DNA of 64,000 nucleotides, from positions 98,915-162,914 of the forward strand of contig CAVVMJ010000005.1 of the NCBI GenBank assembly GCA_963749445.1, written 5' to 3'. Shown one piece after another: positions 16,955-64,000 of the stretch. The DNA comes from an uncultured bacterium (GTDB lineage Bacteria > Patescibacteriota > Doudnabacteria > UBA920). The translations under genes were made by a program, and so were the position numbers. Numbering within the stretch: position 1 is the stretch's first letter; every line of letters starts with the position of its first letter. The notes beneath the pieces are model-generated. The model saw only the letters and a program-made list of their open reading frames with translations. It made no database searches and had not been told where the DNA came from.

Positions 16955-17466
16955 TTATTTTCCAAATATTTTTTATATCCCTGTTCTTCCAATTTTTTGG
17001 ATTTTTCGTTTACGACTTCCGCCATTGTTTTTTTGTAGTCAACTAATTTTTTTGCTAAATTTTCATCCGCTATCGCTAAAATTTGTATGGCTAACAACCC
17101 GGCGTTTTTGGCGCCGTCGATGGCGACCGTGGCAACGGGGATGCCCGGGGGCATTTGCATGGTGGAGAGCAGGGCGTCCAGGCCTTCCAGTTTCCAGTTT
17201 ATGGGCACGCCGATTATTGGCAGGGTAGTGTTGGCTGCCATAGTTCCTGCCAAATGCGCGGCACCGCCCGCGCTGGCAATTATCACTTTGAGGCCGCGCG
17301 AAACTGCCGTAGTTGCATACTCGCGCGCCCGTTCCGGCGTCCTGTGCGCGGAATTCACGCTCATCTCAAAAGCCACGCCAAATTCCTCCAAAACCTTAAC
17401 CGCTTCCTGCATCACTTTAAGGTCGGAGTCCGAGCCCAAAATTATTCCTATAAGTGGTTTGTCCAT
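16951..17466 (-). CDS. purE: N5-CAIR mutase
   Basis: IGIILGSDSDLKVMQEA...ASAGGAAHLAG. Confidence 0.9.
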   Translation of the reverse strand: MDKPLIGIILGSDSDLKVMQEAVKVLEEFGVAFEMSVNSAHRTPERAREYATTAVSRGLKVIIASAGGAAHLAGTMAANTTLPIIGVPINWKLEGLDALLSTMQMPPGIPVATVAIDGAKNAGLLAIQILAIADENLAKKLVDYKKTMAEVVNEKSKKLEEQGYKKYLENK

Positions 17467-17514
17467 AGGTCTATTTTAGCATAAGTCTTATAGGTCTGAT
17501 AGGATGGATAAGAC

Positions 17515-18195: not shown

Positions 18196-18244
18196 AAAAT
18201 TTTTCTACTAAATACTAAAGGGGCTAAATACGAAAAGTTCGACC

Positions 18245-19672: not shown

Positions 19673-19994
19673 GGTGCGCTGCCCCTGGTTGATTTTTTAG
19701 GCGATATTTTATTACCGGTTTCCCATCCTCAAGGCAAAAAAAAAATTCTAAAGTGCCGCGTTTTATAGTAATCTCGTTGCCGGGTTTTACAAGAGAGAGC
19801 TGGATTCGTATTTCTTCAGGGCTCATCCCAAGTTTTTCAGATAAGTCCGGCCGTTCAGCGCCGGGTTTTTTTATATCATGTTTTTTTAAAAGATTTTTAA
19901 CTCCCATGGTCGCGCCTTCCGCGCCAACGATTAGCCCTGCTCCGGCTACTGCGCCTGTTAAGAAATTTCTCCTGTCAATAAGTCTGTCTGGCAT
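19653..19994 (-). CDS. small hypothetical protein with twin-arginine-like N-terminus (RRNFLTGAVAGAGLIVGA); overlaps purD start by 20 nt
   Basis: 113-aa ORF on the same strand as the pur genes. Confidence 0.35.
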   Translation of the reverse strand: MPDRLIDRRNFLTGAVAGAGLIVGAEGATMGVKNLLKKHDIKKPGAERPDLSEKLGMSPEEIRIQLSLVKPGNEITIKRGTLEFFFCLEDGKPVIKYRLKNQPGAAHHEAKLI

Positions 19995-20064
19995 ATATTT
20001 AGTTGGTTAATTTTAAAAAAAATAAAAAAGTGTAGCAAAAAATTTCGTGACGAGTAAGGTTATT

Positions 20065-20661
20065 TTAAGCGCTTAATTTTTCTATCACTTCCACGTACAG
20101 ATGGTTTTCTTTTTCCTTGAGCCGCCTGTATAACGATTCCACGGTATCACCGGCTTGGATTTTTTCATACGTCCGGCCCAGCACCGGGCCAAAGTCAAAT
20201 TCCAAAGTTAAAAAATGGATGGAGGAACCGGCAAAAGTTGCTTTTTGGCTTAAAAAATTGGCAATAGCTTTGTCGGTGAGCATACCTTTGTTCCAAAGTC
20301 CGATGCTTCCGTCGGGGTTGAGTGTTGTTCCATCCTTCGCGTCCGGAATTAATCCGGGATGAAGATTTAAAATTTTATTCGGAAAAGCCAAAATTACTTC
20401 ATCAAGTATAAATTGTTTCCAACCTGCCAAACAAATGTAATCGGGATTAAGTTTTTTTAACAGCGGCAGCAGGTTTTCTTTTTTTGGGCAGATCTCAACG
20501 GCCAGATTATGTTTTTTGGCGCGTTCCAACCCCGGCGCAACAGCTTTGTCGGAAACCACGGCAACAATCTGCCCGTTAATTTTTCCGGCAGCAATTCCGT
20601 CTATAATTGCCTGCAGGTTGGTGCCGGTGCCGGCGTTGGAAATCAATACCGCAATATTCAT
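20065..20661 (-). CDS. purN: GAR transformylase
   Basis: MNIAVLISNAGTGTNLQAIID and ICLAGW...LNLHPGLIP. Confidence 0.85.
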   Translation of the reverse strand: MNIAVLISNAGTGTNLQAIIDGIAAGKINGQIVAVVSDKAVAPGLERAKKHNLAVEICPKKENLLPLLKKLNPDYICLAGWKQFILDEVILAFPNKILNLHPGLIPDAKDGTTLNPDGSIGLWNKGMLTDKAIANFLSQKATFAGSSIHFLTLEFDFGPVLGRTYEKIQAGDTVESLYRRLKEKENHLYVEVIEKLSA

Positions 20662-20765
20662 AAATTGATTTTTCTACTAAATACTAAAATAACTAAAATA
20701 TTAAACCTGTATTTCGTTATTTTTCGTATTTAGTACATTTAGTATATTTTAGTATTTAGTAGAGG

Positions 20766-22190
20766 TTAGAATAACGCGCCTTCCGGTTTTGTCTGCTGGT
20801 AGTTCGGTTCAACCACGTCTTTTTTTCGTTCGCAAATGTCTATGGGGTACTCGCCGGTAAAGCAGGAAGTGCAGAATAAGTCTTGGGGCAGCCCCGTGGA
20901 TTCTATTAATCCTTTTAAAGAAAGATAATATAAAGAAGTGGCGCCCAGGAATTTTTTAATTTCTTCCACGGATTTGGTGGCGGCTATGAGTTTTTTCTGC
21001 ACCGGCGTGTCGATGCCGTAAAAATCGGGAAATTTTACCGGCGGCGAGCTGACCAGAAAATGCACTTCGGAAGCCCCGGCCTCAAACAGCATCTTAACCA
21101 ATTGGCGCGAGGTGGTGCCTCGCACTATGGAATCATCCATCACCACAACTCTTTTGCCTTTTAAGACTTCAGGCAGGGGAGTAAGTTTTAGTTTTACGCC
21201 GAGGTCGCGGCTGTGCTGTTCGGGTTGAATGAACGTGCGGTGGATGTAGCGGTTTTTTACCAACGCCATTTCCATGGGGATGCCCGAGGCGCGGGAATAT
21301 CCGGAAGCCACGGGTACGGCGGTTTCCGGCACGGGCACGATTATATCGGCCTCTATCGGGCATTCTTCAAAAAGTTTCATTCCGCAGTTTTTGCGGACTT
21401 CGTAAACCGACTTGCCCAAAATGTTGCTGTCGGGCCGGGCAAAATAAACAAACTCAAAAATATCCACTTTGGTTTTACTCGGTTCTATTTGCGTTGATTG
21501 TAATCCATCCTTATCAATAATCACCATTTCCCCCGGGAGCACTTCGCGCAAATAATCAGCGCCGACTGTGTGGAAGGCGCAGGTTTCGGAAGCAATCACA
21601 TACCCCGATTTGTTGATGGTGCCTATAGCCAGCGGCCTTATGCCAAACGTGTCACGAACCGCTACTAAAGAATCCTTGGTTAAAATCGTCAAGGCAAAAG
21701 CTCCTGTGAACAGAGGGTAAGCCTTAATAACCGCTTCTTTGATGGATAATCCCTGTTCCAAATAGTAGGCTAAAGCTTTAGCCATAAGCGTGGAGTCGCT
21801 GCAATCGTCCGTCGCGATGTCTTTGCCTTCCAAAAAATCCTTTAGTTTTTTTACGGACGGCAAATTGCCGTTGTGCGCCAAGGCAATTAAATTATCGCCC
21901 GCCAAAATCGGCTGGGCGTGTTTAATATGCGAGCCCTCGGAAGTGGAGTAGCGGTTGTGCCCGATGGCAATGTGGCCTTTGAGGCTTGATATGGTTTCTT
22001 CGCTGTAAACATGAGTGACCAGCCCCATATTTTTGTAGCACTCAATATGGTTGCCGTCCGAGGTGGCAATGCCGGAGCTTTCCTGCCCGCGGTGCTGGAG
22101 CGCGAACAATCCGTAAAACGTCAACCTTGATACATCAAGATTCTTTCCGTAGATGCCAAAGACTCCACATTTTTCGTTAAGATTTTCCAT
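20766..22190 (-). CDS. purF: amidophosphoribosyltransferase (short N-terminal propeptide before Cys)
   Basis: KCGVFGIYG..., 474 aa. Confidence 0.9.
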   Translation of the reverse strand: MENLNEKCGVFGIYGKNLDVSRLTFYGLFALQHRGQESSGIATSDGNHIECYKNMGLVTHVYSEETISSLKGHIAIGHNRYSTSEGSHIKHAQPILAGDNLIALAHNGNLPSVKKLKDFLEGKDIATDDCSDSTLMAKALAYYLEQGLSIKEAVIKAYPLFTGAFALTILTKDSLVAVRDTFGIRPLAIGTINKSGYVIASETCAFHTVGADYLREVLPGEMVIIDKDGLQSTQIEPSKTKVDIFEFVYFARPDSNILGKSVYEVRKNCGMKLFEECPIEADIIVPVPETAVPVASGYSRASGIPMEMALVKNRYIHRTFIQPEQHSRDLGVKLKLTPLPEVLKGKRVVVMDDSIVRGTTSRQLVKMLFEAGASEVHFLVSSPPVKFPDFYGIDTPVQKKLIAATKSVEEIKKFLGATSLYYLSLKGLIESTGLPQDLFCTSCFTGEYPIDICERKKDVVEPNYQQTKPEGALF

Positions 22191-43775: not shown

Positions 43776-44259
43776 CCTACGAACTTACGAACATTTCGAA
43801 CTACGAACTGACCCGTTATGCCAATAAAACCAAAGATAAGGAAACAAGATTTATTATATCCTGACTTATCGTATGAAATTATTGGCGCGTTGCTTGCGGT
43901 ATACAAAGCTTTGGGGCCGGGACTCCCGGAAAAAGTTTACCAAAGAGCGGTCGCGGAGGAATTAAGGAGAAGAGGGATAAAGTTCCAAGAGCAGGTTCCG
44001 GTAAAAATAATTTACGAGGGCATTCCTATAGGAATTTATTATGCCGATTTCGTCATTGAAGATAAAATTGTTTTGGAATTAAAAACTTACAGATTTTTTA
44101 GCAGAAAAAATATTGACCAAACAGTCGGTTACTTAAAAAGTTTAAAATTACAGCTCGGTATGCTAGCCAATTTTACCAGAAATGGTTTGGAATATAAAAG
44201 AATAATTAATCTTACGTAAGAAGCCGGTTCGTAGTTCGTAACTTTCGTAAGTTCGTAGG
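43776..44259 (+). mobile_element. GxxExxY gene cassette bounded by about 36-bp imperfect inverted repeats
   Basis: Left: CCTACGAACTTACGAACATTTCGAACTACGAACTGACC. Right: CCGGTTCGTAGTTCGTAACTTTCGTAAGTTCGTAGGA, which is the reverse complement with a few mismatches. Confidence 0.5.
43818..44219 (+). CDS. GxxExxY family protein
   Basis: GPGLPEKVYQRAV fits G-x-x-E-x-x-Y. 133 aa. Confidence 0.7.
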   Translation: MPIKPKIRKQDLLYPDLSYEIIGALLAVYKALGPGLPEKVYQRAVAEELRRRGIKFQEQVPVKIIYEGIPIGIYYADFVIEDKIVLELKTYRFFSRKNIDQTVGYLKSLKLQLGMLANFTRNGLEYKRIINLT

Positions 44260-44268
44260 ATCATCAAT

Positions 44269-46480
44269 ATGAAACCAAAACCGCCCGGCAGACGCCATAC
44301 GCCTCACTTACATCATCAAACTAAAATTAACCAAACCATTATGGATAAGGTCAAAATCAAAAGGGTAAAAAGGGATAAAAAGAAAGCCACAACAAAAGAA
44401 AAGATTTTGGCCGGTTTGGGCGTGGGCGGAACCCTGATGGGCGGCATTGCGGGAATGCAGGCTAAACCCAGCGCGCAGACGAAACTTGTCAGCATCACCG
44501 GCACCGAGCAGTCCAGCGGCACTTCCAAAATTAAATCCGCAATAAAAAAGCTTTTTGGCGCGACCATTGGAGCGCAGACGGCCAAGGCGGAAGAAAATAC
44601 CACCACAACCCGCACAGTTACAGATCCGGATACTGGTCAAATTACCACTTATTACGACACCACTATTAATGGTATGCCTGTAACGGTTGACCAAAACGGC
44701 ACTACCTGGATAAATCAGGGCAACGGAGCCGAGCAGGTTGACCCGCAGGATTACGGCATAGATCCCAATGCCATACAAACGCAGGCTACCACGTCGTCAG
44801 ATACTTCCGGAACCTCCGGCACAAGCGGCACATCTGGCACATCAGGGACTTCTGGTGACGATGGTTCAAGCGGCACTTCCGGTACATTTCCGGGACTTCT
44901 GGCACATCAGGTGACGGTGGCGGTACAGCGGTGACATGGCGACAGTGGTGACAGCACCACTAATACCGGCCCCACCCTAACCGGCGCGCCAACCTTAAAC
45001 TCCAGCGGCACGGGCATTGATGTGTCCGGTTTGGCATCTAGTGGCGGCAGCAGCGGCATCAGCATTGACGACAGCCAGGTTAACTACAATGTTCCCGGCA
45101 CCTACACCGTAACCATCAACGCTTACGACAGTTCCGGCAACCTGACTTCCCAGACATACCAGGTCACAGTTCCGGCTACATCTGGAACCGCGGTACATCT
45201 GGGACTTCTGGTGAACTCTGGCACTTCCGGTAGTAGCGACGCCACTAATACTGGCCCCACCCTAACCGGCGCACCAACCCTAAACTCTAGTGGCACGGGT
45301 ATTGATGTCTCCGGTTTGGCATCTAGTGGCGGCGGCAGCGGCATCAGCATTGACGACAGCCAGGTTAACTACAATGTTCCCGGCACCTATACCGTAACCA
45401 TCAACGCTTATGACAGTTCCGGCAACCTGACTTCCCAGTCATACCAAGTCACAGTTCCGGCTACCTCAGGTACATCAGGTACCATCTGGAACCAGTCGGC
45501 ACTTCTGGTACATCCGGTACTTCTGGTGCCACAACCGGCCCCACCTTAACCGGTTTGCCAACCCTAAATTCCACTGGCACGGGCATTAACGTGTCCGGCT
45601 TGACGTCCTCGGGTGGCAGCGACAATATCAGCATTGACGACAGCCAGGTTAACTACAATGCTCCCGGCACCTATACCGTAACCATCAACGCTTACGACAG
45701 TTCCGGCAACCTGACTTCCCAGACTTATCAGATAACAATTCCGGCTACCTCAGGTACCTCTGGCACATCAGGGACATCCGGAACCAGTGGCACAAGTGGC
45801 ACTTCCGGCACTCTGGAACCAGCGGAACCTCTGTCGATTTAGGAGCCCCTGTTTCCGGCTCTATACCATCCCGACTCCAACAATTCTTACAGCTGGACAG
45901 CCTCGACTGCCACCATTGGCGGCCAGCAATACACTAACCTAAACCTTTCCGCCCTGTCGGACGGCCGGATTATTGCCTACATTAACCGGCTGGCACGGAC
46001 GTGACTTCAGGTTTACACCTTGCGGCATGACCGGGACTTTATATTCCGCCTATAAGTGCTAGCTCCGGAGCCTGGTACCTCCGGCACTATCAGGGACTTC
46101 GGGTACATCGGGCACATCATGTACATTCGGTACTACTGGAACTTCAGGTCATCTGTCATCTCAGGCACTCGTCGCCGTCCGCCACAACCGGCAACGTACC
46201 ACCCGTGGTTACATTGAACAACGGCGTGTATACGGCTTCGGTGACTATCAACGGGCAAACCTATACGGCTACAGGATCCACTTTGGGCGATTTGAACAGT
46301 AATATGCAAAAGTACAATAATCTTACCGGCAATAACCAGCAAGTTTTTGCGGCTTTGGCTCAGGCTTCCGACGCCTACGCGTTGAAGCAATATAACGCGA
46401 CGCAAGCGGGTAAAACCCCGGGCAACGGCGCGCCAATTGATATATCCACCGCTTCCGTGTACGGCTCCGATGAGTTATGA
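44269..46480 (+). pseudogene. large surface protein gene with three tandem ~95-aa Ig-like repeats separated by (SGT)n linkers; reading frame broken at the linker microsatellites
   Basis: Track ORFs 44269..44934, 45022..45549, 45555..45842 and 46205..46480 each encode the same unit TGPTLTGAPTLNSSGTGIDVSGLASSGGSSGISIDDSQVNYNVPGTYTVTINAYDSSGNLTSQTYQVTVPATSGTSGT, in different frames. Confidence 0.5.
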
Positions 46481-46810
46481 AACCGCTTACAGCAAGTATT
46501 TGGCCCAGTACTAAGGATCACAACATCAACCCCAACCCCGACCCAACTAACTGACGCGCTCGCCGCTTTGGCAAAGGCTTCGACTCAGGCCGATAATAAT
46601 TTCCAGACTTCGTGGTAGCCAGGATAAAGCGGACCTGATTTATGATCAGACTTACAATAACTGGTTATTAATCATCAGGTCAGACCGGATTAAATATCCA
46701 GACAACCTGCTCCCACTCCGCCTGCCGGTTATGTTCCGCCGGGGACAAGAGCTATCTCCACCAGCAATTCTACCACCGTTACCAACCAGGTTAATGGCCA
46801 AACCATTAGC

Positions 46811-49800
46811 TTGACTTTTGTTAATAATTCGGGCGGCAGCACCAGCACTTTGAAAGTGGGAGACAGTTGGACCATAACCGTTACCGGTCCCAACGGTCCG
46901 GTTTATTCCAGCGACAAAAACGGCAACAACCGCACTTTGATGGGTACTATTACAAACGGGGTTCTTCAGTTGTCCGGGACTGTGACTAGCAACGAGACAG
47001 GTCCCTGGAACGAGGTCTGGACTTACGGCGGCACCGCTAACTCAAACGCAAGCCAATCGGGCGGCTCAATTTCAGTTCCGGTCAGCAATTCCACCGTTAT
47101 TAGCGGCGCAACAGGTTACCGGTCAGCCCATAAATCTTACTTTTACCAACAACACGAGCGGCGACACCAGCGATTTAAAAGTCGGAGACAACTGGACCAT
47201 AACCATTACCGGTCCCGACGGTCCGGTTTATGCCAGCGAGCCGGATGGCAGCGACCGCACCTTGATGGGCTACATCAAGGCGGCAGTTCTCAATTGAACG
47301 GAACCATTACCAGCGACCAGGATGGTCCATGGAATGAGCTTTGGACCTTATGGCGGCACCACTAACTCAAATGCGGTCGGAACAATAGGAACCTTACAAT
47401 TCGGCGTTGCCGGTTCGGCCAGTTTGAACTTTACCAATGCCGGCGGCGGAACCAACGCCTTGGGCTTAGGCAACAGCTGGGTTATTGATATCAAAAATTC
47501 CGCTCCCAATGCTCCGGTCTACGGCGTGAACGCCGGCGGCGTGAGCTATCTTGGAATGACCGACGATCAGGGCAATTTCCACTTGGTGGGCCCCAGTTTG
47601 ACCCAAGCGGGCGATTGGCAAGTAAATATTGAAGTCGGCCAATCCGGCGATAGGCAAAGCGCAGGCTTACAACCGAATACTGTGGTCCATAATGTGGACA
47701 CCACTAAATTGACCCAAGTCGGCGATACTTTAAAGTTCAATGTTGCCACTACCCCGGCTCTTACTTTAGCTACGTTTAACCCTACTTTAATCCCAACGAA
47801 TCTTCTTACCGTGACTTTTCCGGGCGTATCAAACGGTACCTTACAACTTACTCAAAACTACAACAATCAATACTATGCCGATGCGACGACAGCTCAAAAT
47901 TTAGCAACGTTCTACGGTGGCACAGCGGTTAAAGTGCCGTTAAATTATGGCGGCGTTACCCTAAGCCCGGATGCGGCTTTTTACTGGGAAATTCAGTTTC
48001 CCGACGGTACGCAAATGAACGCCGGACAGTTAGCCACTTATTTTATTAACAATCCCCCGGCGCAGTTCCCGGGTTTGGCTGACACTTACGTTAAAAATGC
48101 GATTGCCTCGGCCGAATACTACCACGCTAATCCCAACGCGCCGGCAGGTTCCTATCCTGTTGCCACAACGGGCGGCCCGATTATTACCAGCACTCCCGCG
48201 GTAATAAATCCCAATACGCCCGTTACTCCGGCCGGAACGCTGGCCATAATTTCTCCGGTGACTTCAGCCTTGTTGGTCGGTACCGGTTATAATCTCCAAT
48301 TTACGGCCACCGGCGGCAGCGGTTCTTATACCTGGAGCGGCAGCGGATCCGTACCCACAGGTATGATTTTTGATGCCACCGGCAAGTTTTCCGGTACGCC
48401 CAGCAAAGCCGGAACGTATACTTTTTACGTAACGGCAAAAGACACAAAAACCAATACCGCCGTGACCAGTTCCGCCATTACCGTAACGGTGCAGGCTCCG
48501 GCTACAACCACCCAGACTGTTGCTACCCCGGTGATTAACGCCAACGGCGTAACGGCCAATGTTACGGCAGGCACTTTAACCATCATGGGCAGTAATTTTA
48601 ATACCAGTTTAACCGGCAACAGCGTGCAGGTTGTCAACAGCGCGGGTGTGGTAACCACCGCCTTAACGGTTTCGGCGGTAAACGCCGGTGGCACCCAGAT
48701 TACAGCTCTGCTACCCACGGGTTTAGCGGCAGGCACTTATACCTACAACGTGCAGGTCGTTAATACCGCGGATCCGAGCTTTAAAGCTTCCAACCGCGTA
48801 TCGGTTACCTTTACGATTGCGGCCGCGCCGCAATCCGCCGCGGCTACCGGTTCCAATGCAGCTCAATCCCAATCCGCCGCGGCAGCCAGTTCCGGCTTAT
48901 TGACCACGGCCCAGTTAAGTAATTATCAGACTGCTAACTTATTGACTATAGACCAGTTAAACAATACTCAAAGCACCGGCAATTTGACTCTGGATCAGCT
49001 GCGGGCAGGCGCGTCATCCGGTGCCGCCGGCTCCGCCGCCGCAAGCACCCTGACCATGGGTGATTTGACTTCAGACGGCGGCTCCGCTAAAACCGGTGCA
49101 GCTACCAAAACCGGTTCTACCGCCAGCTCCACAGGCGGCTTGACTATTGATGATTTGACATCAGGCGGCAGTTCCGCAAATGCCGGTAAAGCCACGACAG
49201 GCACCCTTACTATGGGTGATTTATCCGATCAAACTGGTAATGTTGCCGCAGCCGCAAGCACCGGCAGCGCTGCCGCCGCGTCATCCGCCGCCACCGGTAC
49301 AACATCCGGAACTTCATCCTCCACCACCAATACCGGAGGCGGCGGTGGGGGAGGCGGCACTTCATCCGGCGGCGGCGGGATTATAGCCGGCATTACGCCG
49401 TTCTTTACCACCATCAACCCGGCCAATGGGGCAGTCGGCCAATCCTACAGCGGTTCTATTCAGGCCATCAGCAACTACACTGTGACTTTCAACCTGATTG
49501 GCGGCTCCTTGCCTCCGGGACTGTCAATGAGTTCCGGCGGGACCATCACGGGCACCCCGACTACTGCCGGCACTTATACCTTTACGGTTCAAGCCGCAAC
49601 GTCGCAAGATGTTACCGCCACCAAGCAGTTCACTCTGGTTGTCGGCGCGGCCGGCAGTTCAATCGGCGGCGGAGTGTTAAACATGCAAAGCCTGGGCTCA
49701 ATCCAACAGGTAGCCGGAGCGCAGACTTTCCAGGGACTTCAGATGCCGAGCGGTTACGCGGCTTCGGGTGATGGTTCAGCCACCGGCGGCCTGCAGTACC

Positions 49801-50033
49801 CGGGCCTGCAAATGCCCGATGACCAAACCGCCGTCCAGGACCAAACCGGCCAACAATCGGCGGGCACCTATGTCGTTAAGAAAGGCGACACCCTGTGGAA
49901 AATCGCCAAAGCCACCACCGGTGACGGCCGCAACTGGCGCAAAATCCTAGCTGTTAATCCAGACTGTTTGAGTACTCCAGGCAACACCCGAACCCTCAAA
50001 GTCGGCGCGGTGCTGGTGATTCCGAAAATCTAA
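46811..50033 (+). CDS. large surface protein with Ig-like (He_PIG/IPT-type) domains and C-terminal LysM; N-terminal repeat region carries frame disruptions (about 47100-47350)
   Basis: Track ORFs 46811..47365 and 47322..50033. Repeat copies (LTFVNNSGGSTSTLKVGDSWTITVTGPNGPVY / LTFTNNTSGDTSDLKVGDNWTITITGPDGPVY) fall in different frames. C-terminal LysM: YVVKKGDTLWKIAKATTGDGRNWRKILAVNP. Confidence 0.55.
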
Positions 50034-51592: not shown

Positions 51593-52126
51593 TCAGCCTG
51601 ACCCGGTGAGTTTAAAGTGTTTCAACAAATCCTTGTCGTCGTCCAACTCCTCCAGCCTGCCTATGCGGATATAATCAATCAGTCCTGTACTTTTCAGGTA
51701 CGTTATCGCCTCGCGGTTCAGCGGGTAAGGGGTCAGGTAGACGCTGGCCTGGAGTTTGAAGAATTCACCGGATTTTAGCAGCCTTCTGAGTTTGTCGCGC
51801 TTGTCGTTGGCATCGCGGGGGATATCAAACATAATCATCCGCCATTTGCCGTCCCACGTTTGTTTTTTGGGCAGCCATGCTTTGGCCATAAGCAGTTCCA
51901 GCTGGCCTTTGCGGGTCAAGCGCAAAAATTTTTGTCCCGCCGCGGTTTTTGTGATGTTTACATAGCCTTTGCGGCGGAGCCTGTAGGCGGTTTGGCGGTA
52001 TTGTTCGTAAGTGCCCGGCTGGCGTTTTTGCTCCCATTGCCGTTTGGATGAAAAAATGGACGTGAAGCCGTCTACAAAGGCAAATAACAGAAAACTTTGG
52101 GGATAGTGTCTTAAACTTCGCGGCAT
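51593..52126 (-). CDS. hypothetical protein, wHTH-like N-terminal half plus Cas2/PaaX-C-like C-terminal half
   Basis: RQTAYRLRRKGYVNITKTAAGQKFLRLTRKGQLEL. C-terminal WRMIMFDIPRDANDKRDKLRRLLKSGEFFKLQASVYLTPYP fits the strand-DIP-basic helix-strand pattern of Cas2/PaaX C-domains. Confidence 0.4.
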   Translation of the reverse strand: MPRSLRHYPQSFLLFAFVDGFTSIFSSKRQWEQKRQPGTYEQYRQTAYRLRRKGYVNITKTAAGQKFLRLTRKGQLELLMAKAWLPKKQTWDGKWRMIMFDIPRDANDKRDKLRRLLKSGEFFKLQASVYLTPYPLNREAITYLKSTGLIDYIRIGRLEELDDDKDLLKHFKLTGSG

Positions 52127-53070: not shown

Positions 53071-54903
53071 TTACTCCGGGCTTGCCCACAGCACCAGTTG
53101 GCCGGTTTTGGGGCCGCTGGCGCCGGCAAAGCCGCTCGGGACGTTTAAGCCGGCGGTTAGCGTGGAATTTTGCTTGGCGCCGACGATGCCGCTAAAGTTT
53201 TGCCAGAACTTATTGTTGAGCGAGAGATTGTCGGTAAACAGGGGGTCGCCGGAAACCGAGGCGGACAGGCTAAGGCCGACGCTGCCGGTGTTTTGCACGG
53301 TGAGGCTTTTGCTGATTTTGGAGCCGGGGGAAACGGCGCCGAAATCCAAATTGGAAACGTCAACCGTGAACGATACGGAAAAAGACGATTGGTCGGGTGT
53401 GGAAGTGCCCGCTATAAGTCCCGAATCTTGTTGAGGAGCCGCCTGGCCGCCGCTAAAATTGGCGCTCAGGCTCACAGCGGAGGAAGCCGGCCGGCCGACT
53501 TTGAGCGCGACTTGGTTGCTGCGGATGTAGCCGGATTTTTCGGCGTAGACTTTGTAGTAACCGTCCGGGGCGGCAATAACAGCGGTGCCGGCGCTGTCGG
53601 TAGCGGCAGTCGCGTTGCCAAAGTAGACGTTGGCGCCGGACAGGGGAGATAAGGCGTTATTATTGTAGCTTTGCACCGCGGCCGTGACGCTTTGTCCGGA
53701 ATCGGCGGCGGCGGCGGACAAATCAAGTTTAAGCGGCTGCCAGTCAAAGCCGCCAAAGTAAATCAGCAAATTGTCGTTAGGCTGTACCGCAAAGTCCGCG
53801 GCGCCGACCTGCAGGGGGACGTTATTATCCAAAAAAATCCAGCCGGTATTGCCAAAAGCGGCGTCGCTGTTGATTTGGTCCAAATACGGACCGTAACCCG
53901 TTGATTTGATGTCATAAGTAAAACCGCAGCTGGCGGAAGCGTTTTTTACCACATCGATTGCGGTTATGGCTGCCACTTGCCCCGTGCAGATTGGCCCGGC
54001 GGAACCTTCTATCCTAAAGTTGACCGTAAACGTTTGGGCTGCGGAAATAATTTTAAGCGGCAAAGTTTTGCCGGACAGGGCAATTACCGCGTCGGCCGTA
54101 ACCGAAGGAGACGCGTCGGCGGTGTCCGTGGCCAGCCATTTAAAGCTGCCATCCGGATTTTGATAGGAAACTAAAAAGCTCATTGGATTGTTGCCGCCTT
54201 TTGTCCAAGTTTGCGGGTCAACGCCTAAAGCGTCTAACGCCCAGACTACCCAGGAAGTGGAAGAGGAATCCGTATTGCCGCTTGAGGGGTCATATAAGAA
54301 TCCGCCGTCTTGGCCCTGGTCTGTTTTTAAGTAAGCTAAGGCTGAGGCAATATGGCTGTCGGCAGAGGAGGCACCCGCGGCAACCAAAGCCATTATCGCG
54401 GCCGCGGTATCGTTGCTGTCGGAACCTGCCGTAACAGACCAGCCCCACCCGCCGTCGCCGTTTTGATGCGCTAGGATAAAGTTTTTGGAATCAATTATAT
54501 TTTGGTCGTTTATGGGCACTCCGGCGGAGGCCAATGCGAGGATGCCGAAAAAATCATCGTTAAGTGCGGTAATGTCGCCGAGTTGGCTTTGGTTGTGGTA
54601 ACTTTCCAGTGCCGCGACGTAATCTATGGAACCAAAAGTTTTGGGGTTCTGGTTTAAAGATGTAATGGCTAAAATCGGGGCTTCAAAATTTATTGCCGAC
54701 GAACCCGAAACGTTTTTTAAATAGTCGGCCGGTATGTTGTTTGCTCCGAGCGCCGACAGAGCCATTGTCGGCCACGGATTGTTTGAATGGGCGAGCAAAT
54801 AATTTTGAGCTGACTCCTGATTGTAATCGGCTTTGGATAAAATAGGGAAGAAGAGGTTGACGATTACAATAACAGAGAACAATAATGAGAGTTTGGGTTT
54901 CAT
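53071..54903 (-). CDS. secreted protein with prenyltransferase/squalene-oxidase-type (alpha/alpha toroid) repeats and C-terminal beta-rich domains
   Basis: Repeated HQNGDGGWGW, DQGQDGGFLY and YQNPDGSFKW. Signal peptide MKPKLSLLFSVIVIVNLFFPILSKA. Confidence 0.55.
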   Translation of the reverse strand: MKPKLSLLFSVIVIVNLFFPILSKADYNQESAQNYLLAHSNNPWPTMALSALGANNIPADYLKNVSGSSAINFEAPILAITSLNQNPKTFGSIDYVAALESYHNQSQLGDITALNDDFFGILALASAGVPINDQNIIDSKNFILAHQNGDGGWGWSVTAGSDSNDTAAAIMALVAAGASSADSHIASALAYLKTDQGQDGGFLYDPSSGNTDSSSTSWVVWALDALGVDPQTWTKGGNNPMSFLVSYQNPDGSFKWLATDTADASPSVTADAVIALSGKTLPLKIISAAQTFTVNFRIEGSAGPICTGQVAAITAIDVVKNASASCGFTYDIKSTGYGPYLDQINSDAAFGNTGWIFLDNNVPLQVGAADFAVQPNDNLLIYFGGFDWQPLKLDLSAAAADSGQSVTAAVQSYNNNALSPLSGANVYFGNATAATDSAGTAVIAAPDGYYKVYAEKSGYIRSNQVALKVGRPASSAVSLSANFSGGQAAPQQDSGLIAGTSTPDQSSFSVSFTVDVSNLDFGAVSPGSKISKSLTVQNTGSVGLSLSASVSGDPLFTDNLSLNNKFWQNFSGIVGAKQNSTLTAGLNVPSGFAGASGPKTGQLVLWASPE

Positions 54904-55945
54904 ATTTGTGGAATTAATTATTTAGACAAAAGCATCGGCTATCGTCTTCGTCACCGGCTTCGCTATGGTTTCGGCGACAAGCCGGCGGATTGTTCGCAAT
55001 AATTTTATTAGCGACGTAGAGCGAGAGAAACTAAATAGCTTGCTATTTAGTTTCCGAGCCGAGGAGCTAATATAGGTTCAATACCTGGCAGCTCTGCTGC
55101 GTATTGATAGCATCTCCTTGGAAATACCTCGGAGCTCTGTTCCGAGGAACCTTTATTACTGATAACTTGGCTACCCGTCTTCGCTTCCGACTTCGCCAAG
55201 GCTACGTCGGACAAGAAAGCTACGGCGGGTTGTTTTTCAGCAAAGCTGAAAAACAAAAAACCGCTCAACAAGCAGGCGGTAAATAATTATAATATAGATT
55301 GTGTCTATATTAAATTCCTGCTCGGGAGTTTGTTGTTTATTTAGTAACCGGACTGACCCCGACATTTGTCGGAGATTACCGTTGCGGCACAGTGCCGGAT
55401 TTTCACCGGGCTTCCCTAAAATAAACATTTGAATTTTTAACGTAATTGGATTCTATACCGGGAGATAAAAGTTGTCAATCCCGCAAAGTCCCCGGATGGG
55501 CGCCATCCGGTGTCGTCATCCGTTGAAAGCCTTGACAGCTTGGTAATGGGCTTAAAACGGTAAAAACTTAAATAAATAACTGTGGATATTTAAGGCTTGG
55601 CCCAAACGTCTAAAATCAGGGCCTTTGACAAAATCTCTTGCAATGTGTTTTGGGTAAAATCGGTCAATTTTTGGGGTTTTTTGTTTCTCTTTCAAATATG
55701 AGGGATTTTACATATGTGTAACATTTAAGTTAAACCGACTATTAAAATAGTTTCATCAAGCCCGAAAAATGCTTGTTGCACGTTTTATGATTCATTTAAT
55801 TGAACGTTGTAAAAATGAATTAAAAATCTTGTGAACAATTTGCTCCAAAATTCAAATATTTTTCCCCTAACTAAAATTTACAAGCAAATTGTTCCATACC
55901 AAATCTTGTCAGATAAATTTTTTTGTTTAACCTGATAAAAAATTG

Positions 55946-55979: not shown

Positions 55980-56174
55980 ATGTTGCCTGACCGCCGAAAA
56001 TCCGGCTTTTTTTTCGGCCTTTTTTGCCGAATATTTCATTTCTTTCGCTCCAAAAGATGAAACCGAGTTATTGGACCCAATAGCATTTGATTTATAGAAG
56101 TTAGCACGTAAAAAAGGAAAAAAAGTTTTATCAAAACGCGGCGGGTTTTATTGACTTGGATTTACGTAAGAAGC

Positions 56175-56275
56175 TATAATTATATTAGATATCGCTTATC
56201 CGAGATTAAGCGAAAACGGCCAGAAATAAAAGCAAAAGGTTTAACCAAAAAAAAGCGTTCTCGGTTATCCGAGAT
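56175..56275 (+). promoter_or_regulatory. TATAAT (56175-56180) followed by two direct TTATCCGAGAT repeats (56197-56207, 56265-56275) before ATG 56295
   Basis: Read directly. Confidence 0.35.
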
Positions 56276-56294: not shown

Positions 56295-59200
56295 GTGGAC
56301 GAGAATTTGAAAGAAAATTTTGATTCGTTCTTAAGCCTCGCGGAAGCGAGCAAGCTAACAGGGTACCACCAGGATTACCTTGGTTTTTTGTGCCGCACCG
56401 GCAAGCTCCAGGGATTTAAAATTGGCAGGAACTGGACGACGACCAAACAAGCCTTGGATGAGTTCATTAAAAACTATAAAAACGGGGTTAGCGAAATCGT
56501 TGATGAAACAGGCAGGAAGATCCCCGTTAAGGTAGAACGCCTAGCCCCTCAAGTTGTCATCGCGGATTTGCCCGCGGGGCAACCTCCAATTGCGGCGGGT
56601 CTTGTTTTTTCGCAGGGCGCAACTCCACAGCCGCAGGAAGTTTTGCCCGCTGCGCTTAATTCCAGTTTAGAGCTTAGGCACCTCCGCAGAGACGTCATTG
56701 ATGAAATTGACAAAAAGGTGCAGAACTTGTCCGCTAGCGTGGAAAAGATTGAAACCCAAACTCAGGAACAGGCGAAACAGTTAGAGGCAAATAAACAACA
56801 AATACTGGCAGTTGTCCCGGTGGCGGAAACGGCGCCGCAAGTACCGTCAACCGCGGCAGCGATAAACAATTTTGCCGAAGAAGACGAGTACGTCAAAAAA
56901 GAACGGCAGCGATTCAGCAACAAGTTTGCTTCCAATTTTGATTTCGGAACCGCGGATATTCACCCGACTACGCCAAGGCTTCGTCGGGCAAGCGCGGAAC
57001 CAGAACGCGGAACATACGCGGATCAATCCAAGTTCGCGCTGGGGAAGGAAAAAGTCAAACAACTTTACGGAAGCTTTACAAAAAAGAGCCGCATAGATTT
57101 TAACCGGGTCGGCGCGTACGCCTTGGTTGCAATAATTTTGGCGCTGTTTATGGGATCGGTGTTCTGGAGAAATTTGTTTAATAATCTGTCCGGCAATCAG
57201 CGGCCGCAGGAAATGAAAATTGTTTACCAGAACAATAATAGCGGCAAGCAGCCAGCGGTAAGCAATCAGCAGCCCGGCGCGGGTCAGGGCGGAACCACCA
57301 TCGTTAACAAAACCGTCAACCAGCTGCTCGGCTTTTCCGACGCGGACTTGTACAGCCTGATAGATAACCGTTTAAACCAATATTTGGCCGAAGGAAGATT
57401 CAAAGGACCCAAAGGGGACCAGGGGCTGCCGGGGCTGCCGGGCGGAGCCACCTACGTAGCGTCAAACCCCGCGACCGGCTTTTCCGGCGGCAGCATTGGC
57501 GGGACAACCTATCTTTCTTCCCAGGATTTTGCCACAAATAACATTACGGTTAACATCAGCCTTACGGACAACGGCACGGCGGTTTTTAACGGGTACGCGA
57601 CTTTTAACGGGAACACAAACTTAAGCGGCACTACGACCATTGCGAATTTGAACGTTGCCAATATTAATCCGAATTTTACCCAGGGCAGCGTGGTGTTCCA
57701 GGGATTAAACGGGCTGGCGCAGGACAACGCGAATTTTTATTGGGACAGCGTAAATCATCGCCTTGGCATAGGCACCACCACCCCGGAATTCGCTTTGGAT
57801 GTTAATGGCGTCGTGAACGCGCAGGCCTTGTACGTTAACGGCACGCCGTATATCGGCAGCCAGTGGATTTCCACCAGCACGGGAATTTATTTTGCTTCCG
57901 GCAATGTGGGTATTGGCACGACTTCGGCTTCAAGCACGATGCTAACTGTGGCGGGCGACACATCGGTATTCGGCAATTTGGCGGTGGCCGGGACATCGTC
58001 GCTGGCTTCGGCAATTGTTGGCAACCTCACAGTTACGGGCACATCAACACTTGATAGGACGTATACGATAGAATTGGCCGTATCGGACTTATCAACGCTG
58101 GCTACAACTTCAGTAACCAGTTTGGCGGTATCGGGAATCTCGTCACTCGCGACCACCACCATCAGCAACCTTACTTTAACCCAGCCGCTGTCTTTGTCGT
58201 CAGGGGGCTTAGGGTTTGATTCGTCGGCTATTCAAAAGGGCGGGCTGTTGGCCGGAACGGGCAACGGAAGTTTTGGCATCCAGCCGGTCGGCAGCGACGG
58301 CTTGTGCTTGCTGGCTTCTTCCACCGCGCCGTCGGGAATGGCCTGGACTGATTGCGCCGTGGCGGCCAATGCCATTACTTCGTTAAACGGTCTGACCAAT
58401 CCGGTGCAGACTTTTGCCACGGGCAGCGACATCAACATCGGTTTGAATATAACCTCCAGCGGATCCACTCACACTTTTACGCCGACTTTTACCGGCACCT
58501 TGGCCGCCAATCGCTTAAACAGCAACGTGGTGCAGGGGATTACGAATGACACAAACATTACCGGCTCAATTTTAAACCAGGTTTTGACTTTGGGCTGGAA
58601 CGGGCAACTTTCCGCGGCGCGCGGCGGCACTGGCACCAACACTTTGGCTTCCTTGACCGTCGGCAGCAACTTAAACATCAGCGGAGGACAGAATGTCCTT
58701 ATCGGCACTTCCACCCAGATTACGTTATCAAACAATCCGTCCTTTACTTCTATCACCGCCACTGCTTCTTCTTCCTTGGGCAATGCCACGGCCACGGCTT
58801 TTTCCGCCACGACCTTTAACGGCAACACCCTGACTGCCGGCTCCGGTACTCTGACTTTGAATAACAACACTTTGTCTTTGCAGGGCGGCAACACTACACT
58901 GGTTGGCATCAATTCCATCACAAGTTCAACGATAGCCACCTCCACCGTTGGCACTTCCACCATCTCCGGCTTTTTGGCCTTAAACTCCACCACCACCAAT
59001 TCCAACATCAGCGGTTCAACCGTCAACAACGTCACCATCCAGGGCAACAGCAATACCTTAACCCTGCTGGGTACTTCTTCCATTGACCAATCCGTCACCA
59101 CCACCTCCACTCCGACCTTTGCCGGCCTCACCGTCAACGGCCCCGCCTCGGCACAATCTTTGATGGTGACGGGCAACTTAACCGCCACGGGTTCGACTAC

Positions 59201-62200
59201 GCTCGCCGCCTTGACGGCCGGCACGTTGGCCGTAACAGGTTCGACTACGCTCACTGTCTTAAATACGACCGGCGCCGTAACCTTTGCCTCTCCCACTACC
59301 ATCATCAACACCGTTACTTATCTCTGGCCGTCTATCCAGGGCGCGGCCAATACTTTTTTGATGGATAACGGTTCAGGAACGTTATCCTGGTCTGCCGCTT
59401 CCACCACCCTGTCCGGTTACGCCTGGATGCTGGGCGGCAACACCTTAACAGCTACCGGCACCTTTGGCACGCTCTCCAACAATGACTTAAACATCATTAC
59501 CAACTCCACCACTAGGATGACCATCCTCTCCGGCGGCAACGTCGGCATCGGCTCGTCCGCCCCAGCTTCCCTGCTGGATGTTTTTGGGACGGCCCAACTC
59601 CGAGGCGCGTCAAACCAAATTGGATTGTATGTCAATTCGTCAGGGAATGTTGGGGTGGGGACGACTTCTCCGGTTGCCCTGTTCAGCGTCAGCGGCAATG
59701 AATTCATCGCCGGATCTTCCACCATAACCAACCTTAACCAAGCCCTGCCCGTGCGTTCTACCGCGGGCGGCGCCCTGTTCAACGGCGCCGTTGCTTTGGG
59801 CTCTTCCGATGTCACCGGCATCCTGCCTATCCTTAACGGCGGCACCGGAGCTTCCACTCTGGCCGGAGCCAACATCGTCACGGCCAACGCCTCAGCCGGC
59901 CAGGTCCCTTACTTTACCGCCCCGACCACCCAAGCCGGCTCTGCCAACTTCCTTTGGAACAATACCAGCAACCTGCTGACCGTCAACGGCACCATTAACG
60001 CCACCACCTCCAACTTTACCAACCTGAACGCTTCCTCCACGGTTTTGACCAACGCCACGACCACGGGCCAATCGGTTCTTTTGGGACAAACCAACGGCAA
60101 GCTGCTGGCTTTAGACCAAAACGGAATCATCATCTCCACTTCCACCGCCTACCAGACCGCCTTGAGCAATCCCGATACCGGCACGGGAGCCTCGCCGCAA
60201 ATCGCTTATTGGTCAAGCGCGACCGGACTGACGGGCGCGTCCGGCTTCCTATGGGACAACTCAAATACCAGAATGGTGGTCAACGGCACGATCAACGCCA
60301 GCAGCACCAACTTTACCAATGCCACCACCAGCCAACTGTTTGTCACCGGTTCTACTAACGGCAAATTAGCCGCTTTGGACGCTAATGGAATGCTCATCGG
60401 TACTTCCACCGCTTACCAAGTGGCCGGCTCTTACCTTACCACCATCGGCAGCGGCTCTTCCTCCACCATCCCTTATTTCACGGCTACGGCCAACACTTTG
60501 CAGGGGTCTAACAACTTATCCTTCAACGGTTCAAATTTAGTTTTGAACGGAACGATTTACGCCACTTCCTCCAACTTTACCAACGCCACTACATCCCAAT
60601 TATTCGTAACGGGACAGACGGGTAAGTTGGCCGCGCTTGACGCCAACGGGATGCTGATAGCGACTTCCACCAGCTATCAGACCGCCCTGACCAATCCCGA
60701 TACCGGCACGGGAGCCTCGCCGCAAATCGCTTATTGGTCAAGCGCGACCGGACTGACGGGCGCGTCCGGCTTCCTTTGGGACAACTCAAATACCAGAATG
60801 GTGGTCAACGGCACCATCAACGCCACCTCCTCCAACTTCACCAACTTAAACGCTTCCTCCACCGTCTTAACCAACTCTACCACCACAAACCAGTCCGTCT
60901 TCTCCGCCATTACCGGCCCCACCTTCCTGGCCTTAGACTCCAACCATATCCTAATGGCCACTTCCACCCCGGTGTTAACGGTTACCGGCTCCGGTTCCCT
61001 CACTTCCACCGGCGGCACCTCCCCGAATATCGCCTTGGTCACCCTGGCTAACAACGCCGTCCTCTTTGGCCAAGGCAGCGCCACCATCGGCACTTCCACC
61101 AACTTTTCCTGGCTTAACGGCCAAAACCTCTTTAGCGTCAACGGCACCATCAACGCCACCTCCTCGCTGTTCACCAACGCCACTTCCAGCAACCTGGCCG
61201 CCACCTCCTTAACCTCCGCCCTGCCGGTCAGGAGCACCACCGCCGGCTACCTCTACAACGGCGCGATTAACCTTAGCTCCGGCTCCTCTGACATTACTGG
61301 CACTCTGGCCATCGGCAGCGGCGGCACCGGCGCCACCACTCTGGCCGGCGCCAACATCGTCACGGCCAACGCCTCAGCCGGCCAGGTCCCCTTACTTTAC
61401 CGCCCCGACCACCCAAGCCGGCAGTGCCAACTTCCTTTGGAACAATACTTCCAACCTGTTAACCATCAACGGCACCATCAACGCCAGCACCTCCAACTTT
61501 ACCAACCTGAACGCCTCCTCCACGGTTTTGACCAACGCGACAACGACAGGCCAGCAGTTCATTCTGGGGCAGACTAACGGGAAACTATTGGCCCTTGACC
61601 AAAACGGCATGGTCATTTCCACTTCTACCGCCTACATCACCACCGCCAACGTCTCCGGCGCCTCGCCCCAGGTGGCCGTGTTTGCCGGAGCCAATACGGT
61701 TAACGGATACAGCGGCTTCCTTTGGGACAACTCAAATACCAGAATGGTGGTCAACGGCACCATCAACGCCACCTCCTCCAACTTCACCAACTTAAACGCT
61801 TCCTCCACCGTCTTAACCAACTCTACCACCACAAACCAGTCCGTCTTCTCCGCCATTACCGGCCCCACCTTCCTGGCCTTAGACTCCAACCATATCCTAA
61901 TGGCCACTTCCACCCCGGTGTTAACGGTTACCGGCTCCGGTTCCCTCACTTCCACCGGCGGCACCTCCCCGAATATCGCCTTGGTCACCCTGGCTAACAA
62001 CGCCGTCCTCTTTGGCCAAGGCAGCGCGACCATCGGCACTTCCACCAACTTTTCCTGGCTTAACGGCTCTAATCTCTTTAGCGTCAACGGCACCATCAAC
62101 GCCACCTCCTCGCTGTTCACCAACTCTACCACCACAAACCAGTCCGTCTTCTCCGCCATTACCGGCCCCACCTTCCTGGCTTTAGACTCCAACCATATCC

Positions 62201-64000
62201 TAATGGCCACTTCCACCCCGGTCCTGGCAGTTACCGGCTCCGGAAACATCGCCTCTTCAGGAGGGACTTCACCTAACCTTACTTTTACCGGAACACTTCC
62301 GATACTTAACGGCGGAACAGGACAGACAACTCTGGCGGCGGCCAACATCGTCACGGCTAACGCCTCAGCCGGCCAGGTCCCTTACTTTACCGCCCCGACC
62401 ACCCAGTCAGGGAGTGCCAACTTCCTTTGGAACAATACTTCCAACCTGTTAACCATCAACGGCACCATCAACGCCAGCACCTCCAACTTCACCAACTTAA
62501 ACGCCTCCTCCACGGTCTTGACCAACGCCACGACCACGGGCCAATCGGTTCTTTTGGGACAAACCAACGGCAAGCTGCTGGCTTTAGACCAAAACGGAAT
62601 CATCATCTCCACTTCCACCGCCTACCAGACCGCCTTGAGCAATCCCGATACCGGCACGGGAGCCTCGCCGCAAATCGCTTATTGGTCAAGCGCGACCGGA
62701 CTGACGGGCGCGTCCGGCTTCCTATGGGACAACTCAAATACCAGAATGGTGGTCAACGGCACGATCAACGCCACCACCTCCAACTTCACCAACTTAAACG
62801 CTTCCTCCACCGTCTTAACCAACTCTACCACCACAAACCAGTCCGTCTTCTCCGCCATTACCGGCCCCACCTTCCTGGCCTTAGACTCCAACCATATCCT
62901 AATGGCCACTTCCACCCCGGTCCTGGCAGTTACCGGCTCCGGAAACATCGCCTCTTCAGGAGGGACTTCACCTAACCTTACTTTTACCGGAACACTTCCG
63001 ATACTTAACGGCGGAACAGGACAGACAACTTTGGCGGCGGCCAACATCGTCACGGCCAACGCCTCAGCCGGCCAGGTCCCTTACTTTACCGCCCCGACCA
63101 CCCAGTCAGGGAGTGCCAACTTCCTTTGGAACAATACTTCCAACCTGTTAACCATCAACGGCACCATCAACGCCAGCACCTCCAACTTTACCAACCTGAA
63201 CGCCTCCTCCACGGTTTTGACCAACGCCACGACCACGGGCCAATCGGTTCTTTTGGGACAAACCAACGGCAAGCTGCTGGCTTTAGACCAAAACGGAATC
63301 ATCATTTCCACTTCTACCGCCTACATCACCACCGCCAACGTCTCCGGCGCCTCGCCCCAGGTGGCCGTGTTTGCCGGAGCCAATACGGTTAACGGATACA
63401 GCGGCTTCCTTTGGGACAACTCAAATACCAGAATGGTGGTCAACGGCACGATCAACGCCACCACCTCCAACTTTACCAACTTAAACGCTTCCTCCACCGT
63501 CTTAACCAACTCTACCACCACAAACCAGTCCGTCTTCTCCGCCATTACCGGCCCCACCTTCCTGGCCTTAGACTCCAACCATATCCTAATGGCCACTTCC
63601 ACCCCGGTCCTGGCAGTTACCGGCTCCGGTTCCCTCACTTCCACCGGCGGCACCTCCCCGAATATCGCCTTGGTCACCCTGGCTAACAACGCCGTCCTCT
63701 TTGGCCAAGGCAGCGCCACCATCGGCACTTCCACCAACTTTTCCTGGCTTAACGGCTCTAATCTCTTTAGCGTCAACGGCACCATCAACGCCACCTCCTC
63801 GCTGTTCACCAACGCCACTTCCAGCAACCTGGCCGCCACCTCCTTAACCTCCGCCCTGCCGGTCAGGAGCACCACCGCCGGCTACCTCTACAACGGCGCG
63901 ATTAACCTTAGCTCCGGCTCCTCTGACATTACCGGCACTCTGGCCATCGGCAGCGGCGGCACCGGAGCTTCCACTCTGGCCGGAGCCAACATCGTCACGG
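56295..64000 (+). CDS. giant membrane-anchored protein: N-terminal HTH_17/excisionase-like domain, coiled coil, TM helix, short collagen-like GXY stretch, then >2000 aa of Thr/Ser/Asn/Gly-rich fibre-like tandem repeats; runs off window; single-base frame change at about 61386
   Basis: LSLAEASKLTGYHQDYLGFLCRTGKLQGFKIGRNWTTTKQALDEFI, TM helix VGAYALVAIILALFMGSVFW, collagen-like GPKGDQGLPGLPGG. Nested repeats of about 690 bp recur at 59880, 61350, 62340 and 63030. The copy at 61381-61391 reads GGTCCCCTTAC where the others read GGTCCCTTAC. Confidence 0.6.

Follow-up and report, generated by a model that had tools for sequence, protein, structure and literature searches.

The giant gene and its reading frame

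We analyzed a 64,000-nucleotide (nt) stretch of DNA, called the window below, from an uncultured bacterium of the Patescibacteriota lineage Doudnabacteria (assembly GCA_963749445.1, contig CAVVMJ010000005.1, positions 98,915 to 162,914 of the forward strand). The last part of the window is occupied by a giant gene that starts at position 56295 on the forward strand and runs past the window end. It encodes a winged helix-turn-helix (HTH) domain of the excisionase/MerR type, a single transmembrane (TM) helix and a very long repetitive region that resembles a surface fibre. This anatomy, with the fibre outside the cell, had been suggested by an earlier reading of the letters alone (the sequence-only reading), and we found it conserved in many independent assemblies.

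As assembled, the gene is an open reading frame (ORF) of 1760 amino acids (aa) with a GTG start (56295–61577, +), and its product is identical to a database protein (P0013). Orthologues repeat the same GTG start and N-terminus (MDENLKENF...). The final ~63 residues are an out-of-frame read-through past an extra C, which lies in a CCCC run (61388–61391, +) that has one surplus C relative to three sister repeat copies. At the junction, the sister copies read GGTCCCTTAC, and the window's copy reads GGTCCCCTTAC (61385–61395). With the extra C deleted, 2,568 stop-free codons reach the window end, so this base is the only interruption, as the earlier reading had placed it. Translation from 61300 in the frame one base ahead of that of the ORF likewise meets no stop up to the window end, and its product carries the same repeats further. 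Downstream of the extra C, 869 codons stay open, and the repeat units that they encode are near-identical in protein sequence to those upstream. The remaining two frames of the gene region are full of stops.

Given that removal of a single C opens the whole frame, the frame change most probably stems from an assembly indel. An indel, rather than a truncation, is also favored because another region of the window is split in a similar way, because the orthologue in locus L001 (a "contig_N"-named assembly) has at least two frame breaks, and because the orthologues in the NODE_-named assemblies examined (L002, L016 and L018) have an intact frame. Some 300-nt repeat copies are 100% identical, and the repeat copy number in the assembly is therefore uncertain. 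We also considered phase variation at the C run and rejected it, since a homopolymer of 3–4 nt is too short for this mechanism.

The other split region (44251–50030, +) apparently codes for a second large surface protein, which has TSGTSG repeats, Ig-like He_PIG/PKD domains and, at its C-terminus, a LysM domain. It is distributed over all three frames, which suggests either several assembly indel errors or decaying surface genes. In L001, a 160-kilobase (kb) ENA contig that holds the closest relative, a gene of 6,367 residues is called (15846–21275 and beyond), starting ~4.5 kb past the frame-broken HTH gene. This called gene and the HTH gene may be parts of one giant gene that assembly indels have split.

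Domain organization of the protein

The winged HTH occupies residues 12–60 (56328–56474, +), in the part of the protein predicted to be cytoplasmic. These residues match the Pfam family HTH_17 (PF12728) over model positions 1–49 of 51 (E 5.7e-5, with a sub-threshold score of 23.7 bits), and three relatives (P0001, P0004 and P0007) have a precomputed match to the same family. The TIGR01764 "excise" model matches the same residues weakly (E 0.008, 16.4 bits vs a cut-off of 28.8), as do two PHROGs, one of a DNA-binding protein and one of an excisionase. Among solved structures, the best match to a profile of the HTH is the TraN-like AM32 (E 0.04).

We modeled residues 1–81 with AlphaFold2 (AF2), using 11 homologues, and the resulting model reaches a pLDDT of 82–85 in its core. 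Its elements follow the order beta-alpha-alpha-beta-beta-alpha, as in the Xis/MerR winged-helix fold. Foldseek searches of the PDB returned the excisionase RdfS, Pukovnik Xis, TraN and BldC as best matches (probability ~1.0), then SoxR and RacA (0.9–0.97) and other MerR-type domains. The RacA-DNA complex 5i44 is among the matches (probability 0.89–0.93, TM-score 0.53), and the top matches of probability ≥0.9 are all DNA-binding proteins. The HTH_17/Xis-like motif that the sequence-only reading had picked out is borne out by model and fold comparison.

The alignment of 11 family members has 20 invariant residues. All of them fall within residues 15–47 in the HTH, and the cytoplasmic head is therefore the most constrained part of the protein. 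A wing motif, K-x-G-R-N-W, is invariant in the family. The presumed recognition helix contains D and Y residues and has a modest positive charge.

The HTH is followed by a helix free of Pro and Gly (residues ~122–171; 56658–56807, +) whose hydrophobic residues fall into a heptad pattern by a count of a/d positions. This segment is plausibly a coiled coil, judging by its sequence, and L145 within it is near-invariant in the family alignment. The single TM helix (residues 272–292; 57108–57170, +) is the sole strongly hydrophobic segment, in agreement with the one TM helix counted earlier. Four K/R residues stand in the 15 residues before it and one in the 15 residues after it. By the positive-inside rule, this excess places the N-terminus in the cytoplasm, and we predict an N-in, C-out topology.

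Beyond the TM helix is a conserved, presumably extracellular motif, LLGFS..LY.LIDNRLNQYLAEGRFKG, which is followed by a collagen-like stretch of five GXY triplets (the whole at 57321–57449, +; the triplets at 57405–57449). The triplets are GPKGDQGLPGLPGGA (residues 371–385). Nearly all long relatives have a run of at least four triplets ~100 residues past the TM helix, and the relatives displayed have about 6–7. The motif and the triplets together form a putative trimer-registering element.

The ectodomain past the GXY stretch comprises ~2,180 residues within the window, of which 72% are T/S/N/G/A/L and 3.3% are charged. Its first part (residues 386–1200; 57450–59894, +) is divergent. It is rich in the same residues, has (N/K)VGIGTT-type motifs and degenerate copies of a ~100-aa unit, and has weak PHROG matches, including one to a tail-fibre family (E 2e-4). 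Near-identical units begin at residue ~1200 and form an array of at least 13 units of ~87–134 aa with the pattern AGQVPYFTA...F(L)W(D/N)N..N...(V/I)NGTINA..SNFTN...LALD.NG (59895–64000, +), which runs past the window end. Thirteen units of 87–134 aa are marked by NGTI[NY]A, and degenerate copies can be followed back to residue ~430. At the DNA level, there are seven families of direct repeats, with units of 261–402 nt nested inside units of 700–1480 nt; the nested T/S/N/G-rich repeats of the sequence-only reading could thus be delineated. The relative P0017 contains eight copies of the window's repeat unit.

Pfam scans of the ectodomain gave no significant match and detected no sensor or ligand-binding domain. 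When a 361-aa segment of the repeats was used to search for homologues, none came back, probably because low-complexity words swamped the candidate step.

Relatives in the Patescibacteria

We ran a profile against 1.84 billion representative sequences, of which 5,810 matched at E≤1e-3, 103 of them at E≤1e-30. Their lengths are bimodal, with one group of ~270–350 aa and another of giants of 1,300–5,427 aa. In the long members, the HTH lies near residue 22, the TM helix at ~200–300 and the GXY run ~100 residues further on, and most of the 150 best family members have a TM helix at the equivalent position. A search with the N-terminal 420 aa returned Patescibacteria proteins that are mostly cut by contig ends. 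The database label of these relatives is only "helix-turn-helix domain-containing protein".

A genome scan found 176 relatives, and 80 loci were kept. Among these loci, the specific lineage labels are mostly Candidatus Doudnabacteria, and the others are other Patescibacteria metagenome-assembled genomes (MAGs). At most long-type loci, the gene leaves the contig or the retrieved stretch. In L002 and L018, the orthologous ORF is unbroken over more than 3,700 aa and reaches past the end of the locus, and that in L016 is complete at 2,491 aa.

Full-length relatives reveal how such proteins can end. P0014 has a Peptidase_S74 domain ("chaperone of endosialidase"; E 1e-11) and a weak match to an H-type lectin, and the C-terminus encoded in L035 is S74-like by eye. 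P0014, P0017, L016 and L003 have in common a C-terminal domain, GRVPVKV..NENG..GDY...PGYA.KA, that is followed by a Pro-rich tail. PF26696 ("PTL_trimer") was also flagged in relatives.

A ~290-aa paralogue has the HTH, the helix and the TM segment without the fibre, and almost no ectodomain. The HTH of these short paralogues contains a near-identical motif, TGYHQDYLG. They lie in a conserved housekeeping neighborhood with the order nrdR-nrdAB-(murI)-PaaX-like, then divergently the HTH-TM gene, one for a TM protein of ~190 aa, and infC; these gene names were given by eye, from the N-termini of the products.

Conserved boxes in the leader

A promoter-like site precedes the giant gene (56151–56180, +). 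It consists of TTGACT, an 18-nt spacer and TATAAT, which agree with the consensus at 11 of 12 positions. Both hexamers are kept in the L001 orthologue, and the −10 box is kept in most others. The predicted promoter would give a leader of about 105 nt.

Two sites in this leader contain inverted conserved boxes. Site 1 (56189–56206, +) lies ~8 nt past the −10 box and is an imperfect 18-bp palindrome, ATATCGCTTATCCGAGAT, that includes box A, TATCCGAGAT (56197–56206). Site 2 (56258–56275, +), TTCTCGGTTATCCGAGAT, includes box B, TTCTCGGTTA (consensus ATCTCGGATA), and ends ~20 nt before the GTG. Across loci, box A is TATCCGA(G/T)AT and starts ~16 nt past the −10 box, and box B is AT(C/A/G)TCGGATA, in inverted orientation. 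Both boxes make up one half of an 18-bp palindrome at their site, ATMTCGG-N4-CCGAKAT. The right arm of site 2 is absent in at least six loci.

The 8-mer ATCCGAGA/ATCTCGGA occurs at a fixed position in 19 of 25 orthologous upstream regions. Both boxes are conserved in about 18 orthologous loci, with a start-to-start spacing of 64–70 nt in 15 of them and 51–56 nt in three. The sequence ATCCGAGAT occurs twice in the 64-kb window, both times in the leader sites, vs an expectation of 0.26. Across the 298 kb of long-type loci, the boxes are almost all in intergenic DNA upstream of the giant gene. Among the matches listed from a metagenome-wide scan for the palindrome, most are due to chance; at least 7 of 120 adjoin an HTH gene, and 6 of these are 20–96 nt upstream of it.

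The inverted arrangement hints at autoregulation. The boxes could be operators of a dimeric HTH protein, for which the candidates are the giant protein's own invariant HTH and a PaaX-like neighbor described below. They could also pair as a long-range helix in the mRNA, given that boxes A and B are complementary at 8–10 of 10 positions. The RNAalifold consensus structure is such a helix of 7 bp. One of its pairs is broken in 5 of 18 sequences, and the other six do not vary. The single-sequence fold of the leader has a z-score of −2.5.

In five loci, box A occurs once more (TATCCGAGAT or TATCCGATAT), ~400–590 nt upstream of the giant gene (L012 at 3979, L013 at 7696, L017 at 9408, L018 at 9420 and L021 at 334). 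No exact extra copy exists in the window. Promoters of short (~285–310 aa) paralogues share CCGTCAAGAGTAAAAAGTAT, not the palindromic boxes, and this element is ~60–110 nt upstream of the gene (L059, L062, L056, L047, L050, L053 and L063).

Genomic context

The neighbors in the window that we scanned with Pfam are cellular: a DsbA-like protein, a glycerate-kinase-like protein, a 2-hydroxyacid dehydrogenase and Ig/LysM surface proteins. No integrase is among these neighbors; the scan covered them rather than the whole window. In at least nine loci, one of which is on a contig of 1.2 megabases, homologues of the window's 610-aa and 189-aa genes precede the giant gene in divergent orientation. 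A tblastn search against 50,697 phage records gave no significant similarity. Given the cellular neighbors, the conserved synteny and the lack of phage similarity, the giant gene is chromosomal at this locus and not part of a prophage. The sequence-only reading had offered a prophage-derived fibre as its second option, which finds no support at this locus.

A protein of ~160–180 aa with a PaaX_M (Cas2-like) domain is a conserved and usually divergent neighbor of both the giant genes and the ~290-aa HTH-TM genes. Its gene, identified by the PaaX_M match, is at 51593–52126 (−) in the window, at 9436–9918 in L059, at 9366–9860 in L062 and at 8987–9469 in L056, and occurs in other loci. The N-terminal winged HTH (wHTH) of this protein is highly divergent between loci, including those that bear the boxes, and L002 has no PaaX-like gene within 10 kb upstream.

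Comparison with known systems

Excisionases such as Xis and RdfS are the best fold matches, and HTH_17 and TIGR01764 are the only profile families in Pfam/NCBIfam that residues 12–60 match. Excisionases are stand-alone proteins of ~60–80 aa that work with an integrase. By contrast, the HTH described here takes up just the N-terminal 2% of a membrane protein whose length is 2,568 aa or more.

A different parallel is provided by RacA of B. subtilis, RocS of S. pneumoniae and RicO of S. aureus, in which an N-terminal MerR-type wHTH is followed by a coiled-coil region and a membrane attachment. With its putative coiled coil, the giant protein would have the same order. All three act as tethers between DNA and the membrane; in RocS and RicO, a MerR-type wHTH and coiled coil are joined to a membrane anchor, which in RocS can be replaced by a TM domain (PMC11500499; bioRxiv 10.64898/2026.03.06.710092). 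The likeness is one of architecture and of the fold match to RacA. None of the three families turned up in our Pfam/NCBIfam scans, and no direct sequence comparison was made. Unlike these proteins, the giant protein has a true TM helix ~270 residues in, and then more than 2,000 residues that are predicted to be extracellular.

ToxR, CadC and TcpP also have an N-terminal DNA-binding domain in the cytoplasm, a single TM helix and a C-terminal domain beyond the membrane, a layout that in our case is assigned by the positive-inside rule. However, they combine an OmpR/PhoB-type wHTH with a small periplasmic sensor, whereas the giant protein combines an Xis/MerR-type HTH with a giant repetitive fibre. 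Trans_reg_C, the Pfam family of OmpR/PhoB-type wHTH domains, has no match in the giant protein.

On the extracellular side, phage tail fibres and endosialidase-type fibres resemble the giant protein in their low-charge, T/S/N/G-rich ectodomain and short collagen-like segment, and they resemble its intact relatives in the S74 chaperone. The giant protein differs from them in being encoded by a cellular chromosomal gene and in having its own TM anchor and a cytoplasmic HTH. Collagen-like surface proteins of the Scl and BclA type have a long uninterrupted GXY stalk, whereas the giant protein has only five triplets. Giant genes for surface proteins in other ultra-small or predatory bacteria, those of Omnitrophota, are likewise very long, repeat-rich, disruptive to assembly and predicted to act in attachment (bioRxiv 10.1101/2023.11.21.568195). 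They belong to different families, and the same study does not speak of an HTH or of features of collagen or tail fibres.

We searched the full-text literature for the family and for its architecture and found no description of a fusion of HTH_17, TM helix and fibre. The proteins constitute a large uncharacterized family that joins two known kinds of protein, namely membrane-tethered DNA-binding proteins and tail-fibre-like surface fibres.

Interpretation and alternatives

The explanation that we prefer, and to which we assign about an even chance, is that the protein is a bitopic giant surface fibre whose MerR/Xis-type foot derives from a co-opted membrane DNA-binding module, holds DNA at the membrane and regulates its own gene in cis. 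Outside the cell, the short helix and mini-collagen segment would register a homotrimer, and the fibre is probably trimeric. The nearly uncharged thread of thousands of residues, with its tail-fibre-like units, would serve as an attachment fibre, and its end would carry the tail-fibre-type folding or chaperone domains of intact relatives. Inside the cell, the winged HTH, the coiled-coil-like helix and the TM helix would form a foot that holds DNA at the membrane under the fibre. The likeliest specific target of this foot would be the inverted boxes in its own leader. Since the ~290-aa paralogue has the module without the fibre, we suggest that the fibre took over an older, membrane-bound module of DNA-binding type as its anchor.

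Several results weigh against this proposal. The HTH_17 match falls short of the Pfam gathering cut-off of 27 bits. PDB sequence searches with the ectodomain and with a relative's C-terminal domain found nothing significant and no solved fibre structure, and an AF2 monomer model of three repeat units (6-row self-alignment) had a pLDDT of 37 and no usable fold. The gene's own C-terminus lies beyond the window. Moreover, the boxes are absent from 180 kb of short-paralogue loci. Given that the short paralogues have a near-identical HTH, the boxes may belong to another factor or to an RNA helix. Finally, the palindromic boxes point to a dimer, and the collagen and tail-fibre features point to a trimer.

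The sequence-only reading had favored a membrane-tethered one-component regulator, and a contact sensor comparable to ToxR or CadC is possible, though unlikely. Engagement of the fibre, or tension on it, would then alter the oligomeric state or DNA affinity of the HTH and so switch genes from the membrane. The bitopic N-in layout with an N-terminal domain of DNA-binding type agrees with this idea, as do the conserved operator-like palindromes that overlap the predicted transcription start of the gene itself. However, the HTH is of the MerR/Xis and not the OmpR type, and a tether fits the architecture at least as well. A sensor is also difficult to reconcile with the ectodomain's lack of detected ligand-binding or sensor domains, with short paralogues that keep the HTH-TM module and almost no ectodomain, and with boxes that, in the DNA available, are found only at the gene's own leader. 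Another explanation, which we regard as rather unlikely, holds that the HTH-like domain does not bind DNA and is a protein-interaction or assembly module, used to dock a partner or to nucleate oligomers before export. The boxes would then belong to the PaaX-like neighbor, whose gene is conserved beside long and short family members, or to the mRNA helix that RNAalifold predicts. The D, Y and modest charge of the presumed recognition helix would suit such a module, as would an HTH that is invariant across paralogues with differing promoters. Against it stand the invariant wing motif and the fact that every top fold match of high probability is a DNA-binding protein. The PaaX-like protein, for its part, is a questionable binder of the boxes, considering its divergent wHTH at box-bearing loci and the absence of its gene upstream in L002, and covariation in support of the RNA helix is weak.

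Two further alternatives concern the status of the gene. It is quite improbable that the gene is a decaying pseudogene with a real frameshift, giving the truncated 1,760-aa product or none. The extra C does stand in the deposited sequence, and the frame is likewise broken in the window's second surface-protein region. However, a 1-nt difference in a homopolymer is typical of assembly error, and the long open frame past the shift, in contrast to the stops in the other frames, and the near-identity of the protein units on both sides are unlike decay. A prophage or phage-derived tail fibre gene is highly improbable. The likeness to tail fibres that the earlier reading had noticed is real at the level of modules, namely the weak PHROG matches and the Peptidase_S74 domain in relatives; it does not extend to the locus, whose neighbors are cellular, whose chromosomal synteny is conserved in many MAGs and which has no tblastn match among phages. 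In addition, an N-terminal HTH and TM helix are not features of a tail fibre.

Returning to the fibre with a DNA-binding foot, a bolder version of this proposal is that a host-contacting fibre derived from a phage tail fibre is wired through its TM helix to a DNA-binding domain on the operator boxes of its own leader. This would tie the locus itself, if not the whole chromosome, physically to the site of attachment, and fibre engagement or completed synthesis would feed back in cis on transcription. We consider this version unlikely. If true, an adhesin outside the cell would be linked directly to DNA, by mechanics or by position, in an episymbiotic ultra-small bacterium, and we found no such link described.

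Patescibacteria are described as a large share of bacterial diversity, with all cultivated members attached to other microbes (PMC11623550). The family presented here, with thousands of database members and giants of up to 5.4 thousand aa, is a candidate attachment fibre with an unexpected foot of DNA-binding type. To our knowledge, little is known of how Patescibacteria recognize and hold their hosts beyond type IV pili. If the foot binds DNA, the idea of membrane-tethered DNA known from RacA, RocS and RicO would be extended to a deeply branching phylum and linked to a surface organelle. The conserved leader boxes offer a concrete and cheap handle for in vitro work. Such genes are under-reported, as many contigs that hold them break off in the repeats, which are also prone to indel errors.

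Other elements near the giant gene

We now note properties of the divergent genes upstream of the giant gene. The 610-aa gene (53071–54903, −) encodes a prenyltransferase-like alpha/alpha toroid and a DUF4430 domain, and has a signal-like N-terminus. Upstream of it (55313–55440, −) is an element resembling the adenosylcobalamin (AdoCbl, B12) riboswitch RF01482, which matches the full model with 47.5 bits (gathering cut-off 50; E 3.2e-7). From these sequence features, the 610-aa gene looks like one for a secreted transcobalamin-like B12-binding protein under riboswitch control. In the equivalent place of L018 (8880–9051, −), there is a sub-threshold riboswitch match of 39.7 bits, and none was found in L023.

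The AT-rich intergenic DNA between the 610-aa gene and the riboswitch-like element also contains two GC-rich 34-nt copies (54943–54976 and 55176–55209), which are 74% identical and 233 nt apart.

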